Shown piece by piece: positions 12,593 through 26,513 of a stretch of 32,000 bases of DNA. The notes under the pieces were generated by a model. The model saw only the letters and a list, made by a program, of their open reading frames with translations. It was not told the DNA's origin and ran no database searches. The stretch's first letter is position 1, and each line of letters starts with the position of its first letter. The translations under genes and the position numbers were made by a program. The DNA comes from Caedibacter taeniospiralis (lineage in GTDB: Bacteria > Pseudomonadota > Gammaproteobacteria > Francisellales > Francisellaceae). The DNA lies in contig NZ_PGGB02000002.1 of assembly GCF_002803295.2 (NCBI RefSeq), forward strand, positions 5,099-37,098, written 5' to 3'.

Positions 12593-12667
12593 GCGGGAAT
12601 AGCTCAGCGGTAGAGCACAACCTTGCCAAGGTTGGGGTCGCGAGTTCGAACCTCGTTTCCCGCTCCA
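12593..12667 (+). tRNA. tRNA-Gly (anticodon GCC)
   Basis: I folded it by hand. The acceptor stem is GCGGGAA/TTCCCGC. The anticodon stem-loop is CAACC-TTGCCAA-GGTTG. The T arm is GCGAG-TTCGAAC-CTCGT. CCA is encoded. It is near-identical in layout to E. coli tRNA-Gly(GCC). Confidence 0.95.
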
Positions 12668-12670
12668 GAT

Positions 12671-12744
12671 GGCTGGGTAGCAAAATGGTTATGCAGAGGC
12701 CTGCAAAGCCTTGGACACCGGTTCGATTCCGGTCTCAGCCTCCA
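12671..12744 (+). tRNA. tRNA-Cys (anticodon GCA)
   Basis: The acceptor stem is GGCTGGG/CTCAGCC (one G-U pair). The D stem has the A13:A22 mismatch typical of tRNA-Cys. The anticodon loop is CTGCAAA and the T arm is ACCGG-TTCGATT-CCGGT. The discriminator is U73, followed by CCA. Confidence 0.95.
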
Positions 12745-12759
12745 GAACAAAGTTTTAGT

Positions 12760-12848
12760 GCCTGGGTGGTGAAATAGGTAGACACAAGGGACTTAAAATC
12801 CCTCGAGACTTAACTCTCGTGCCGGTTCGACTCCGGCCCCAGGCACCA
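12760..12848 (+). tRNA. tRNA-Leu (anticodon TAA), class II with long variable arm
   Basis: The acceptor stem is GCCTGGG/CCCAGGC. The anticodon stem-loop is AGGGA-CTTAAAA-TCCCT. The long variable arm is CGAGACTTAACTCTCG. The T arm is GCCGG-TTCGACT-CCGGC, followed by A-CCA. The Gly-Cys-Leu order is the same as glyW-cysT-leuZ in E. coli. Confidence 0.95.
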
Positions 12849-22331: not shown

Positions 22332-22446
22332 AGCTTAGTCAAGTCCTTGCATGAAAATATTCAGGCAAAAAAATGCCGCCTTTGACAAAAAATGCCGTTA
22401 GAATGACGGCTATATTTTGATGATTTTTGAGTAACAAGGGGCAAAA

Positions 22447-24582
22447 ATGTCTTTGACAGAAGCAACACAAGAAATAGCTTTGCAAGCGGCATCGTTAGAT
22501 ATCTGGGATAGTAAGTATCGCTTAAAAACGCGCTTGGGCGAAGCGGTTGATGGAAAAATTGATGATGCCTATAAACGCGTGGCAAAGGCGCTTTCTGAAG
22601 TTGAAAAAACAAAAGAATTACAGCAAAAATCTTATCAAGAGTTTCTATGGGCATTAAGAAATGGAGCTATTCCTGCAGGAAGAATTATTTCCAATGCAGG
22701 TGCTTTGGAACATAAACCTGCCACCTCAACGATTAACTGCACTGTTTCTGGTACTATTTATGACTCTATGGATAACATCTTGCAAAGAGTTCATGAGTCA
22801 GGACTTACCCTTAAAGCAGGGTGTGGTATTGGCTATGAGTTTTCGACCTTAAGACCAAAAGGCGCCTTTGTTGCAGGTGCGGGGGCGCATACCTCAGGTC
22901 CCATGTCCTTTATGGATATTTATGACAAGATGTGCTTTACCGTGGCATCAGCTGGAGGCAGGCGCGGAGCACAAATGGGAACCTTTGACGTGGGGCATCC
23001 TGATGTATTGGATTTTATTCGCGCAAAACGCGAGGATGGGCGCTTGCGCCAGTTCAATCTTTCGCTGTTGATTACCAAAGATTTTATGCACGCAGTTGAG
23101 AATGATCAGATATGGTCACTGGCTTTCCCAATGTCAGCTGCTGAACAACAAGCACACAATATTGATTTAAACGACTCTACGCAGGTTCTATGGCGTGATT
23201 GGCCGATCAAAGAGGGCTATATTACCGATCCATCAGGACTTGTTGCGTGCAAAATTTACAACACGATCAAGGCGCGTAGATTGTGGGATATGATCATGTC
23301 CTCAACCTATGATTATGCTGAACCTGGGTTCATTTTGATCGACAAAGTTAATGATGACAATAACAACTGGTTTTGTGAAACTATTCGCGCCACAAATCCT
23401 TGTGGGGAGCAGCCATTACCACCTTATGGTTCTTGCCTGTTAGGCTCGGTTAATTTAACGCAATTTATTGAAAATCCATTTACAGATAGCGCAAGTTTTA
23501 ATTGGGAAAAATATCGTAAGGTTGTGCGCATTTTTACGCGCATGCTCGATAACGTCGTTGAGATTAATGGCTTACCATTGAGCGAGCAACGTCATGAGAT
23601 TGAGTCAAAACGTCGCCATGGCATGGGGTTTTTGGGCTTGGGGTCTGCTATTACCATGCTTAAAATGAAATATGGTAGTGAGACTTCCGTGGCGTTTACC
23701 GAAAAAGTTGCTAAAGAGATGGCACTGGAAGGTTGGCGCGAAGGCGTGAGGCTCTCGAAAGAAAAAGGCAGCGCTCCAGTGCTTGAGAAAGACTATACGG
23801 TGGCTCATGAGTTTTTACGCTTGCGCCCTGAAATGGCTGCTGACGGTATTAAAGCGGGTGATGTTATTAAAGGGCGTCTCTTACACGCGAAATATAGTCG
23901 TTACATGCAGCGCATTGCACAAGAGGATATTTCAATTATTGATGCCATTTGTGAGTATGGTTGTCGTTTTACGCATCATACCTCCATTGCGCCGACGGGT
24001 ACGATTTCGTTGTCTTTGGCTAATAACGTCAGTAACGGCATTGAGCCAAGTTTTGCCCATCATTATGCGCGTAATGTTATTCGTTCGGGTAAAAAAACCA
24101 AAGAAAAAGTAGATGTATTCTCATATGAGCTACTAGCCTATCGCCATTTAGTGAATAAAGAAGCGATGCCATTTGCCAAGGAGGAAGCACATAAGCTGCC
24201 TGATTATTTTATCAGTGCCGATAATGTGTCTCCAAAAGAGCATGTGGATATTCAGGCTGCCGCACAAAGATGGGTGGATTCAAGTATTTCCAAAACGGCT
24301 AATGTACCTACAGATTTCCCCTTTGCTGATTTTAAAGACATCTACCTTTATGCCTATCATCAGGGACTTAAAGGCTGCACGACGTTTAGGTTTAACCCTG
24401 AAGTTTTCCAAGGTGTGCTGGTTAAAGATGAGGATCTTGAGAAAACACTTTATCGTTTCACCCTTGAGGATGGCTCAATAGTTGAGTTAAAAGGTAATGA
24501 AATGATTGAATACGATGGTGAAGAGCACAGCGCTGCAAATCTCTATGATGCCTTGAAAGAGGGGTATTATGGGAAATTTTAA
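22447..24582 (+). CDS. nrdJ: Class II (adenosylcobalamin-dependent) ribonucleotide reductase, large catalytic fragment (NrdJa-like), 711 aa
   Basis: …INCTVSGTI.DSM… The finger-loop region …ATNPCGEQPLPPYGSCLLGSVNL… carries the catalytic Cys. Other motifs are …SIAPTGTISL…NGIEP…, …SISKTANVP… and …GLKGCTTFR. The protein ends (…LKEGYYGKF*) before the C-terminal Cys-rich tail found in unsplit NrdJ proteins. Confidence 0.9.
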   Translation: MSLTEATQEIALQAASLDIWDSKYRLKTRLGEAVDGKIDDAYKRVAKALSEVEKTKELQQKSYQEFLWALRNGAIPAGRIISNAGALEHKPATSTINCTVSGTIYDSMDNILQRVHESGLTLKAGCGIGYEFSTLRPKGAFVAGAGAHTSGPMSFMDIYDKMCFTVASAGGRRGAQMGTFDVGHPDVLDFIRAKREDGRLRQFNLSLLITKDFMHAVENDQIWSLAFPMSAAEQQAHNIDLNDSTQVLWRDWPIKEGYITDPSGLVACKIYNTIKARRLWDMIMSSTYDYAEPGFILIDKVNDDNNNWFCETIRATNPCGEQPLPPYGSCLLGSVNLTQFIENPFTDSASFNWEKYRKVVRIFTRMLDNVVEINGLPLSEQRHEIESKRRHGMGFLGLGSAITMLKMKYGSETSVAFTEKVAKEMALEGWREGVRLSKEKGSAPVLEKDYTVAHEFLRLRPEMAADGIKAGDVIKGRLLHAKYSRYMQRIAQEDISIIDAICEYGCRFTHHTSIAPTGTISLSLANNVSNGIEPSFAHHYARNVIRSGKKTKEKVDVFSYELLAYRHLVNKEAMPFAKEEAHKLPDYFISADNVSPKEHVDIQAAAQRWVDSSISKTANVPTDFPFADFKDIYLYAYHQGLKGCTTFRFNPEVFQGVLVKDEDLEKTLYRFTLEDGSIVELKGNEMIEYDGEEHSAANLYDALKEGYYGKF

Positions 24583-24593
24583 GGAATACAAAA

Positions 24594-25184
24594 GTGGGTA
24601 TTAATGTATTACCTGAATATGTTCGCAGGCACTACGAAATCTATGAATATAAACATGCTTGTGCGATTCTCAAAGAGGACTTTCCAAATGAGTGGGCAGA
24701 TATAGTTTCGTTGCTGGAAGCCTTTAGGTTAAAGAAGAGCTGGATTATTCAATCTGGAGGGCGTAAATCAAAGGTTGCTGAGTATATTGACAACTATTTG
24801 TACGCCATGGGGTGGGTTGAAAAACAATTTAGCACCCAAGTAATTGTAGATGATGTGACTTATAATTCTCCGACTCACAAGGTTGACTGCTTCAAAAATA
24901 GGGTTGCATTGGAAATAGAGTGGAATAATAAAGACCCTTTTTATGATCGATATTTAAATAACTTCAGATTGTTGTTTGATCTTAAGGCTGTTAGTGTTGG
25001 AATTATTATCACTCGTTCGGACGAGTTACAGACAATATTCAATGATCTTGGGCGCGGACAATCTTATGGTGCTTCAACGACACATCTTGGCAAGCTCTTA
25101 CCAAGGATTGAGGGAGGTGGGGGTGCTGGTTGTCCGTTGCTTGTGTTTGGTATGAAAAGTAATTTGTTTGAAGAGGATATTTAG
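24594..25184 (+). CDS. Putative type II restriction endonuclease, BamHI/BglII/BstYI-like fold, 196 aa
   Basis: It has a GTG start 8 nt after an AAGGA RBS. The core, …THKVDCFKNRVALEIEWNNKDPFYDRYLNNF…VGIIITR…, gives a D98-X8-E107-X-E109 arrangement followed by a hydrophobic beta strand. This resembles the catalytic cores of BstYI/BglII (D-X8-E-X-Q) and BamHI (…E-F-E…) as I recall them. It is paired with a DNA methyltransferase gene. Confidence 0.6.
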   Translation: MGINVLPEYVRRHYEIYEYKHACAILKEDFPNEWADIVSLLEAFRLKKSWIIQSGGRKSKVAEYIDNYLYAMGWVEKQFSTQVIVDDVTYNSPTHKVDCFKNRVALEIEWNNKDPFYDRYLNNFRLLFDLKAVSVGIIITRSDELQTIFNDLGRGQSYGASTTHLGKLLPRIEGGGGAGCPLLVFGMKSNLFEEDI

Positions 25185-25805
25185 GTGGGTGCTAAAGAAG
25201 ATTTTATGAATGAACTAAAGGGGCGAAAGTTTAAAACCATTTTAGCCGATCCTCCCTGGCAGTTTCACAATCGAACAGGTAAGGTGGCGCCAGAGCATAA
25301 AAGATTAACTCGATATCCGACTTTGGTTTTGGATGAAATTAAGAAACTTCCTGTCGTAGAGATCGCAGATGAGACTGCACATTTGTATCTATGGGTACCC
25401 AATGCGTTGCTGGCTGAGGGACTTGAAGTCATGCAAGCCTGGGGATTTACTTATAAAACCAATTTGGTGTGGTATAAGGTGCGCAAAGATGGGGGTCCTG
25501 ATCGTAGGGGCGTCGGTTTTTATTTTAGGAATGTTACGGAAGTAATATTGTTTGGTACGCGCGGAAAAAATGCACGGACTTTGCCTCCTGGGAGGAGTCA
25601 GGAAAATATTGTGTTATCAAGAAAACGCGAGCATAGTAGGAAACCTGATGAACAATATGATTTGATTGAGTCCTGCAGTGCGGGTCCTTATTTAGAGTTA
25701 TTTGCTAGGGGGGCTCGAGAGAATTGGTGTGCCTGGGGAAATCAGGTAGAAAACTACAAACCTGATTGGGATACCTATGCCAATCATTCACAGGCATCAA
25801 GGTAA
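25185..25805 (+). CDS. MT-A70 family DNA methyltransferase (DPPW motif; most likely N6-adenine), 206 aa
   Basis: …FKTILADPPWQF… (DPPW encoded at 25248-25259), …HLYLWV.N… and …WGF.Y.T.LVW.K… are the MT-A70 signature blocks. The GTG start directly abuts the nuclease stop (TAG|GTG), with GAGGA 7 nt upstream. An alternative ATG lies at 25206. Confidence 0.8.
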   Translation: MGAKEDFMNELKGRKFKTILADPPWQFHNRTGKVAPEHKRLTRYPTLVLDEIKKLPVVEIADETAHLYLWVPNALLAEGLEVMQAWGFTYKTNLVWYKVRKDGGPDRRGVGFYFRNVTEVILFGTRGKNARTLPPGRSQENIVLSRKREHSRKPDEQYDLIESCSAGPYLELFARGARENWCAWGNQVENYKPDWDTYANHSQASR

Positions 25806-25820
25806 CTTTGGGAGAATAAA

Positions 25821-26513
25821 ATGGCAGTAAAGATAGAGAAAAAGATCACTGGGTTTAATATTGTAAAAGCGAATGAGAAGTTGCTGGATGCCGCAACAAA
25901 GCCAGTTAAAAAAGAAAAAACGCATCTACAGATGAGTGAGAGTGTTAAGCGCCCTGAGTCACTTACGGGAGAAACCTATAAAATTAAGCCGCCTCAGGCT
26001 GAGCATGCTTTATATGTGACTATTAATGATATTGTATTAAATGAGGGAACTGAGCATGAGGTGCGTCGACCTTTTGAGATTTTCTTAAGCTCAAAAAATA
26101 TGGAGCACTTTCAGTGGACCATTGCTTTAACACTCATTATTTCAGCGGTGTTTCGCAAAGGCGGCGATGTTACTTTCCTGGTTGAAGAGTTAAGATCAGT
26201 ATTTGATCCAAATGGTGGTTATTTAAGGCGTGGTGGTAAATACGTCCCCTCGCTTGTTTCAGAAATAGGGGATGTGATCGAAAAGCATCTTAAAAAGATT
26301 GGCATGTTACCACAGGATGACTTGGATGAAACACAAAAACTCTATATTGCAGCTAAGCGTCAAGAGCTTGATGAGCGTCAACAGCCAAGTAATGATACAA
26401 GCAATAGTTTTCCGCTTGAGTCACAATTATGTGTCAAATGTAGCACCAAAGCCATGGTGAGAATGGATAACTGTTTGACCTGTCTTAATTGCGGTTATTC
26501 CAAGTGCGGTTGA
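25821..26513 (+). CDS. nrdJ: Class II ribonucleotide reductase C-terminal fragment (NrdJb-like, TSCPD-type domain with Cys-rich tail), 230 aa
   Basis: …RPESLTGETYKIK…ALYVTIND…RPFEIFLSSKNMEHFQWTIALTLIISAVFRKGG…V.ELRSVFDP.GGY… and a C-terminal CVKCSTKAMVRMDNCLTCLNCGYSKCG. This corresponds to the C-terminal region of unsplit NrdJ, and to NrdJb of Pseudomonas aeruginosa, where the enzyme is also split. Confidence 0.8.
   Translation: MAVKIEKKITGFNIVKANEKLLDAATKPVKKEKTHLQMSESVKRPESLTGETYKIKPPQAEHALYVTINDIVLNEGTEHEVRRPFEIFLSSKNMEHFQWTIALTLIISAVFRKGGDVTFLVEELRSVFDPNGGYLRRGGKYVPSLVSEIGDVIEKHLKKIGMLPQDDLDETQKLYIAAKRQELDERQQPSNDTSNSFPLESQLCVKCSTKAMVRMDNCLTCLNCGYSKCG

Follow-up and report, generated by a model that had tools for sequence, protein, structure and literature searches.

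An R-M cassette between the two halves of a split class II ribonucleotide reductase: a probable later insertion into a variable operon junction

How do the two genes of a restriction-modification (R-M) system come to lie between the two halves of a ribonucleotide reductase (RNR)? The question is raised by a locus in a stretch of 32,000 nucleotides (nt) from Caedibacter taeniospiralis, a Fastidiosibacteraceae bacterium (contig NZ_PGGB02000002.1, positions 5,099 to 37,098; the whole stretch is called the window hereafter), in which nrdJa and nrdJb, encoding a split class II, B12-dependent RNR, are separated by a nuclease gene (R) and a methyltransferase gene (M). The original prediction for this DNA had placed here, on the + strand, four open reading frames (ORFs) of 711, 196, 206 and 230 amino acids (aa) separated by 11, 0 and 15 nt, and had asked whether insertion of the R-M cassette created the split. 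The layout was confirmed from the ORFs of the window, and the family assignments of all four proteins (Ribonuc_red_lgC, BglII-type endonuclease, MT-A70 and TSCPD) were upheld by profile searches. The features of the locus are the following.

22447..24582, + strand: nrdJa, catalytic subunit of the split class II (B12-dependent) RNR, 711 aa (Pfam and NCBIfam).
24594..25184, + strand: R, putative type II restriction endonuclease of the BglII/BstYI fold, 196 aa, GTG start, D98-x8-E107-x-E109 (PF09195, invariant residues and fold match).
25185..25805, + strand: M, putative DNA methyltransferase of the MT-A70 family with DPPW, 206 aa, GTG start (PF05063, PADLOC and junction sequence).
25806..25820, + strand: spacer of 15 nt with the ribosome-binding site (RBS) of nrdJb, GGGAGAATAAAATG, and right boundary of the variable cargo (sequence; loci with different cargo).
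25821..26513, + strand: nrdJb, subunit that supplies the C-terminal part of the split class II RNR, with TSCPD and a Cys-rich tail, 230 aa (Pfam TSCPD and C-terminal match to PRK08665).

The order is thus nrdJa-R-M-nrdJb with all genes co-oriented, and a purine-rich RBS precedes each of them. NrdJa matches the profiles Ribonuc_red_lgC (2e-125) and TIGR02504, NrdJ_Z (571 bits with a cut-off of 400); NrdJb matches TSCPD (1e-6) and its translation shows the Cys-rich tail. A class II catalytic barrel and a separate TSCPD/Cys-rich protein, which jointly cover unsplit NrdJ, place the pair in the NrdJa+b subclass of split class II RNRs. In the unsplit-NrdJ model PRK08665, positions 4-565 correspond to NrdJa and positions 585-759 to NrdJb. 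Alignment of the NrdJa C-terminus and the NrdJb N-terminus with this model, a check that the original prediction had proposed, revealed that no residues are missing at the junction; both proteins have extra residues there, in a C-terminal tail of NrdJa and an N-terminal leader of NrdJb, and no intein or Hint remnants were found in the tail or the leader. NrdJa is 84-89% identical to its counterparts in Cysteiniphilum, Fastidiosibacter, Fangia and Facilibium. NrdJb is 80-87% identical to those of related genera and occurs as an identical protein in public metagenomes; an ENA contig with the identical NrdJb has a partial upstream gene and then a 300-nt gap. In the window nrdJa and nrdJb are not adjacent, as they would be in an NrdJa+b operon, since 1,238 nt with two foreign genes lie between them.

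The age of the split relative to the cassette was approached by a survey of nrdJ loci. An NrdJa scan with one genome per species gave 80 loci and an NrdJb scan of metagenomes gave 80 more, of which 150 altogether were informative; the matches in the metagenome scan were at most 68% identical, which makes this a broad survey and not one of near relatives of the window organism. In these ~150 gammaproteobacterial loci, split nrdJa and nrdJb are the rule, and the halves are at most 300 nt apart in 106 of the 150 (41/76 in genomes and 65/74 in metagenomes). The original prediction had called for a search for empty sites, and these were present in the nearest genera: Facilibium subflavum, Fangia hongkongensis and two Thiotrichales isolates, the closest relatives, have spacers of 15-31 nt. 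No locus with R-M genes between the nrdJa and nrdJb halves was found outside Fastidiosibacteraceae in the surveyed set. According to the literature, almost all gamma-Proteobacteria with a class II RNR carry nrdJ divided at one specific site, and NrdJa+b is monophyletic (PMC4520616, PMC5704485), while the advantage and the origin of the split were described as unclear (PMC4520616). Because the closest genera have the split together with an empty spacer, the cassette did not create the split; and because the cassette is 95-98% identical at the nucleotide level between lineages whose nrdJ genes are only ~77% identical, it is young relative to it. The comparisons therewith point to the split as the first event and to the R-M cassette as later cargo.

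The R-M module was found after nrdJa in three genera of Fastidiosibacteraceae, which are the window organism, Fastidiosibacter and Cysteiniphilum. The window organism has the intact order nrdJa-R-M-nrdJb. Fastidiosibacter lacustris QLIR01000003 (L092) has nrdJa-R'-M-nrdJb, where R' is an 80-aa remnant of R and M is intact. In Cysteiniphilum sp. QT6929 (CP103983) nrdJa-R-M is followed by unrelated genes, and the gene for NrdJb (WHN65995.1) lies at another place in that chromosome. The original prediction took the arrangement to be undescribed. This stood in so far as no paper mentioning genes between nrdJa and nrdJb was found in the searched literature, but the arrangement is not unique, as F. 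lacustris QLIR01000003 has the same layout and Cysteiniphilum CP103983 has it in part. Two segments of the window are defined by the comparison with F. lacustris.

24270..25770, + strand: tract of raised identity (87-98%) to F. lacustris, comprising the 3'-terminal ~300 nt of nrdJa together with R and M; putative horizontally exchanged segment (sliding identity and mismatch counts).
24818..25152, + strand: segment of R that the F. lacustris cassette lacks through a 335-nt deletion (window and L092 aligned pairwise).

The proteins of the window and of F. lacustris are 95.6% identical for M and 94.9% for residues 1-79 of R, as against 86% for NrdJa and 82% for NrdJb. At the nucleotide level the cassette is 95-98% identical and the nrdJ flanks ~77% (range ~72-83%), and the identity falls abruptly at the start of nrdJb. 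Over the last 330 nt of nrdJa, the identity at third codon positions is 0.69 and 0.66 with the cassette-bearing genomes and 0.44-0.55 with the cassette-free ones, the baseline being ~0.50. Because the identity of the cassette far exceeds that of the nrdJ flanks and third-position identity is raised in the 3' end of nrdJa, exchange by homologous recombination is suggested. The histories of cassette and host are decoupled, and the pattern is the signature of a segment that passed horizontally between lineages through homologous recombination, one crossover lying in the 3' end of nrdJa. A search for target-site duplications and for terminal inverted repeats at the ends of the cassette found none. 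The loss of R with retention of an intact M in F. lacustris is the order of decay expected of an active toxin/antidote pair. A 16-nt inverted repeat (88% complementary) was observed at 24828-24843 and 25181-25196 of the window, near, though not exactly at, the ends of the R deletion in F. lacustris.

Exchange of content at the junction is seen in pairs of close genomes. The two F. lacustris assemblies JAMBMW01 (L091:4092-5900) and QLIR01 (L092:5109-5985) are ~100% identical in the flanks and entirely different in cargo: JAMBMW01 carries a 602-aa AAA_21 ATPase resembling the PtuA, AriA, GajA and ATPase-Toprim defence proteins, and QLIR01 the truncated R with M. The breakpoints between them are the stop codon of nrdJa and a position ~15 nt before the ATG of nrdJb. 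Similarly, a metagenome contig (L088) is 98.2% identical to the window from nrdJb on and unrelated from ~17 nt upstream of the nrdJb ATG; its sequence upstream of nrdJb is neither M nor the 3' end of nrdJa. Since a contig of such identity has other sequence before nrdJb, the cassette is evidently polymorphic within the window's own species. The ~15 nt upstream of nrdJb are all that loci with different cargo have in common there. Conserved flanks with differing cargo in close genomes, as seen in L091 and L092 and again in the window and L088, are the mark of a hotspot flanked by core genes; and since the cassette would spread and be replaced by recombination through the nrdJ arms, the site would behave as a small integration hotspot.

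Beyond these genomes, the spacer cargo includes DUF4160/DUF2442 pairs (L012, L019), DUF2442 alone (L023), MqsR-MqsA with a 192-aa ORF (L040), DUF3800 with other ORFs (L045), an AbiZ-like DUF6161 protein with a hydrolase (L054) and PAS-GGDEF-EAL proteins (L161, L170). In 25 Lysobacterales loci, it is a co-oriented, Lys/Ala-rich, histone-H1-like gene whose product has the N-terminus MSNG(N/D)GVTA (L026:12236-12790, L031:12151-12738, L064:12119-13003), and this gene appears to be vertically inherited within the order. The cargo listed for this one junction is a mix of selfish or defence types (R-M, ATPase, MqsRA, DUF4160/DUF2442, DUF3800, DUF6161, HNH) and others (H1-like, PAS-GGDEF-EAL, hydrolase). 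With few exceptions, the cargo genes that were identified with confidence run in the direction of nrdJ, which is expected if the expression of nrdJb depends on read-through. In many bacteria, these loci show, selfish and defence genes recurrently occupy the nrdJa|nrdJb junction, a slot whose content varies between strains.

Some loci depart from the usual layout. Five metagenome loci have nrdJb without nrdJa within at least 5.9 kb upstream. In one of them, L144:6584-9528, a gene for a TIR-domain protein of 470 aa and an ORF of 511 aa stand before nrdJb, and there is no nrdJa within 10 kb. In Cysteiniphilum sp. 6C5 (L089:1-7828, L090:1-7828), very large co-oriented genes that contain no Pfam domain (1,918 and 1,018 aa in L089) stand before the relocated nrdJb.

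Most striking among the occupants of the spacer is a compact family of endonucleases with multiple helix-turn-helix (HTH) domains and an HNH domain, which comprises 162 proteins of ~270-310 aa at E<=1e-10. The HNH gene lies exactly between nrdJa and nrdJb, and is co-oriented with them, in all six loci examined.

L095:187-1023, co-oriented with nrdJ: HNH gene between nrdJa and nrdJb.
L130:499-1347, co-oriented with nrdJ: HNH gene between nrdJa and nrdJb.
L175:4001-4906, co-oriented with nrdJ: HNH gene between nrdJa and nrdJb.
L176:4001-4891, co-oriented with nrdJ: HNH gene between nrdJa and nrdJb.
L177:4001-4882, co-oriented with nrdJ: HNH gene between nrdJa and nrdJb.
L178:4001-4813, co-oriented with nrdJ: HNH gene between nrdJa and nrdJb.

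The family looks like a free-standing gene of the homing-endonuclease type dedicated to the split site. No description of an HTH-HNH family in the nrdJ spacer was found in the literature. The HNH proteins are 51-64% identical, compared with 65-85% for NrdJb of the same loci; that they are more diverged than NrdJb suggests long residence in one host clade and not recent homing. By analogy with phage Aeh1, in which mobE fractured nrdA, the junction might be an ancient selfish-element site: a free-standing endonuclease ancestral to the HTH-HNH family would have fractured NrdJ, and the spacer would have persisted as a landing pad whose cargo (R-M, toxin-antitoxin, defence ATPases) uses the nrdJ promoter for expression and the conserved nrdJ flanks for recombination-based spread. 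This proposal is offered tentatively, and we hold it to be rather improbable. As a separate observation, L178:319-3945 encodes an NrdJa of 1,208 aa with a LAGLIDADG intein and is followed by the spacer HNH gene, so that two selfish elements reside in one nrdJ locus. It was also considered whether the 0.7-1 kb spacer genes of Lysobacterales are decayed HNH genes; the idea was rejected, as the HNH profile matches only the six known loci and the product is H1-like.

The nature of the R-M pair was examined by profile and fold comparison. R matches Endonuc-BglII (PF09195) with E = 1e-42 and 146 bits (cut-off 26) over model positions 1-162 of 163. The catalytic spacing of BglII-like enzymes, known from the structural literature on BglII and BamHI, is D-x8-E-x-Q/E, and R has this spacing in D98, E107 and E109. 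These residues are invariant among 34 close family members; when the divergent member from L083 (30% identical) is added, D98 and E109 are still invariant and E107 is at least 90% conserved. An AlphaFold (AF2) model of R was obtained with moderate confidence (pLDDT 70, pTM 0.73), and the top three matches of this model to PDB structures by Foldseek are all BstYI (probability 1.0, E 2e-6 to 6e-6, TM 0.52-0.62). A search of PDB chains with the R sequence gave no significant match, so the link to BglII and BstYI comes from the Pfam profile and the fold comparison. M matches MT-A70 (PF05063, 6e-32) over all 172 model positions (1-172) and the PADLOC model MTase_II (5e-88). Its nearest solved relatives are chains of a Tetrahymena MT-A70 family protein and METTL3, which fits the published nesting of the MT-A70 clade among bacterial R-M methylases, including those of BglII systems (PMC4738411). 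M is probably an N6-adenine DNA methyltransferase. The start of M directly abuts the stop codon of R (TAG|GTG) and this suggests that the two are translationally coupled; in all contexts examined that include the M region and have an intact R, M adjoins R. Both R and M are full length with the family-invariant residues and DPPW intact. They align from residue 1 with the Cysteiniphilum copies, and the start codon of R in Cysteiniphilum, at the corresponding position, is ATG. The GC content at third codon positions (GC3) and the codon usage of both genes are indistinguishable from those of host genes, which bears out the impression in the original prediction of a host-like composition.

The database search returned at least ~8,000 relatives of R, the best 120 of which are all 70-79% identical and are spread across Gamma- and Deltaproteobacteria-type lineages. 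Related R-M pairs stand in unrelated neighbourhoods in Candidatus Magnetomorum, Desulfuromonas and a 4.3-Mb metagenome assembly, where R and M are ~72-76% identical to the copies of the window. Homologs of R were also found on 13 plasmids, eight of them conjugative, and in five phage records. These unrelated contexts, plasmids and phages argue that the module is mobile, and the pair is a compact, very successful, horizontally mobile type II module belonging to a very large and unusually conserved family. In a metagenome-assembled genome of Lysobacterales (L083:13762-15337), genes for a different BglII-like nuclease, 26% identical to R, and for an MT-A70 methylase of 317 aa, 67% identical to M, lie directly downstream of nrdJb, which is a second, independent adjacency of R-M and nrdJ genes.

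The expression of the cassette was considered from the upstream region, for which five Fastidiosibacteraceae sequences with and without the cassette were aligned.

22337..22404, + strand: conserved region upstream of nrdJa with the invariant AGTCAAGT box (22337-22344) and a TAnAAT -10-like hexamer (22399-22404) (alignment of five upstream regions).

Both the AGTCAAGT box and the TAnAAT hexamer are conserved across the five genera, and the region is likely to be the promoter or operator region of the operon. Neither an NrdR box nor a B12 riboswitch was found upstream of nrdJa, where no riboswitch reached the Rfam gathering score. Consensus scans of the region revealed no excess of promoter-like sites (14 found and 10.4 +/- 3.2 expected), and no convincing internal promoter or terminator was recognized, as the original prediction had said. 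No promoter belonging to the module is evident, an RBS precedes every gene and R directly adjoins M; read-through expression from the nrdJa promoter is therefore most likely. We infer that R-M is transcribed from the conserved nrdJa promoter region and nrdJb from the same mRNA.

The explanation which we regard, with good confidence, as the best for the locus as a whole runs as follows. A two-gene type II R-M module would have been inserted precisely into the ~20-nt spacer of an anciently split nrdJa-nrdJb operon in a Fastidiosibacteraceae bacterium. The cassette would then have spread and been replaced within Fastidiosibacteraceae by homologous recombination, with the conserved nrdJ genes serving as arms, and the slot, whose content differs between near-identical strains, would act as a small integration hotspot. 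The R-M genes would be expressed by read-through from the nrdJa promoter and nrdJb would be translated from the same transcript. The module would work as a conventional restriction and addiction system; the cassette is most likely an ordinary R-M defence and addiction module unrelated to nucleotide reduction. The comparisons show the identities of the genes, the intact catalytic motifs, the insertion at a spacer that is empty in relatives, the horizontal exchange between lineages, the replacement of cargo between near-identical strains and the loss of R with M kept; transcription from the nrdJa promoter region, the translational coupling of R and M, expression of nrdJb from the same mRNA and the restriction and addiction function are inferred.

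Several observations weigh against parts of this explanation. The tract of high identity ends at the 3' end of M and not inside nrdJb, so the right-hand crossover is not explained by nrdJb homology alone; this end of the tract may reflect the replacement of an older cassette allele. In Cysteiniphilum, the cassette (R 79%, M 84%) is more diverged than NrdJa (89%), which is compatible with old vertical inheritance. Palindrome avoidance in 77 kb of host DNA with an intact module gave no module-linked signal, and hexamers with a GATC core were not depleted. Finally, terminator-like sites are somewhat enriched in the region (9 compared with 3.9 +/- 1.8 expected), and two weak, 5-bp terminator-like hairpins were seen, both inside M.

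The divergence in Cysteiniphilum bears on an alternative in which a single acquisition brought the cassette into the ancestor of the window organism, Fastidiosibacter and Cysteiniphilum, after which it was inherited vertically with losses in some strains and no horizontal exchange. The three nrdJ-linked cassettes indeed resemble each other more (M 84-96%) than they resemble copies elsewhere (<=76%), R and M of Cysteiniphilum are only somewhat more diverged than NrdJa, as would be the case for faster-evolving genes, and the composition is fully host-like. Vertical descent alone, however, does not account for the contrast of 95-98% in the cassette with ~77% in the flanks and its sharp drop at the nrdJb start, for the hitchhiking of synonymous sites in the 3' end of nrdJa, or for the differing cargo of near-identical strains, and we consider it rather unlikely. 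One ancestral entry followed by later exchange is likely.

The lack of GATC-core avoidance could also mean that the cassette of the window is an inactive, decaying remnant without current restriction activity, and the GTG starts of both R and M and the loss of R in the sister lineage point in the same direction. Both ORFs, however, are full length with D98, E107, E109, the other family-invariant residues and DPPW retained, and the N-termini align from residue 1 with those of Cysteiniphilum, where R has an ATG at the same position; the remnant is for these reasons an unlikely reading of the cassette.

Less likely still is domestication of the pair, or at least of M, in which the methyltransferase would act as an epigenetic regulator linked with nrdJ and the supply of DNA precursors, and would have a functional and not a parasitic position in the operon. 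Such a role would suit the intact M that remained after the deletion of R in F. lacustris, the unusual conservation of the family (70-79% across phyla) and the coupling of expression to the nrdJ promoter; it does not suit the presence of the module in unrelated contexts, plasmids and phages, the unrelated cargo at the site in sister strains and the absence of such a gene from most nrdJ operons.

The suggestion that the R-M cassette or its ancestor broke a continuous nrdJ into nrdJa and nrdJb, to which the exact position at the domain boundary and the formal resemblance to the Aeh1 nrdA split by mobE (PMC3045599) lend some appeal, is already effectively refuted by the 106 of 150 informative loci that are split without the cassette, nearest genera included, by the monophyly and wide distribution of the split subclass (PMC5704485, PMC4520616), by the confinement, in the surveyed loci, of R-M between the halves to Fastidiosibacteraceae, by the intact junction and by the youth of the cassette. 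Another proposal of the original prediction, that the cassette stabilizes itself doubly, by addiction and by its place in an essential operon, has been weakened: the cassette is strain-variable, R is deleted in F. lacustris and the operon of Cysteiniphilum is interrupted directly behind M. The range of tolerated deletions may nonetheless be biased by the operon context, as in the clean internal deletion of R.

Two further features of the window were recorded. GGCC is strongly under-represented in window positions 1-32000 (15 observed, 70.7 expected), as is CCGG (8 observed, 30.4 expected). This under-representation is not common to the other hosts of the module and thus suggests pressure from other restriction systems in the lineage of the window. 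Three tRNA genes are clustered at 12593-12845.

The hotspot and the HNH family open the origin of the NrdJ split to experiment and supply a concrete and testable hypothesis for it. The results also offer a natural setting in which to study the use that addiction and defence modules make of an important operon, for expression and for recombination-mediated spread. They further call for caution in annotation pipelines and RNR databases in which adjacency of nrdJa and nrdJb is assumed.

In comparison with known systems, the pair resembles the BglII/BstYI type II systems with MT-A70 methylases in its BglII Pfam domain, BstYI-like predicted fold, D-x8-E-x-E residues, DPPW, match to the PADLOC type II methyltransferase and adjacent, co-oriented genes. 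It differs from them in the GTG starts, in having neither a C-protein nor a promoter of its own and in its position inside a housekeeping operon. The RNR resembles NrdJa/NrdJb of Pseudomonas aeruginosa (PMC4520616) in its catalytic NrdJa, its Cys-rich NrdJb and the position of the split, while in P. aeruginosa and most relatives the two form one operon and in the window they are separated by the cassette.

The nearest precedents for a nuclease gene within a divided RNR are the nrdA gene of phage Aeh1, fragmented by the homing endonuclease mobE (PMC3045599), and the 'fractured genes' with split inteins and a free-standing endonuclease (PMC2677866). The locus shares with these cases a nuclease gene placed between two parts of the gene for an RNR catalytic subunit, parts that still assemble into an enzyme. 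However, the insertion of the endonuclease caused the break there, whereas in the window the break is older than the cassette, and the nuclease of the window is a restriction enzyme with a cognate methylase and not a homing endonuclease. The fractured NrdJ of Dassa et al. (PMC2677866) is moreover broken at the thiyl-radical site, another position than the split in the window. The window locus is not a fractured gene of the homing-endonuclease kind, given the empty split sites in its nearest relatives and the missing intein/Hint signal.

The closest parallel to the behaviour of the slot is the documented allelic substitution of R-M genes and their insertion into operon-like clusters (Furuta et al. 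2010, PMC2853133), together with the defence hotspots flanked by core genes. The likeness extends to the conserved flanks, the interchangeable cargo, the R-M pair swapped for a defence-type ATPase and the fact that no integrase or target duplication was seen. Unlike those sites, the slot of the window is a ~20-nt spacer in a two-gene operon for the subunits of one enzyme, and its cargo is almost always co-oriented. Each of the proteins comes from a known family and the R-M pair itself is ordinary; it is the location that is informative, and the hotspot and the dedicated HNH family are more interesting results than the cassette.

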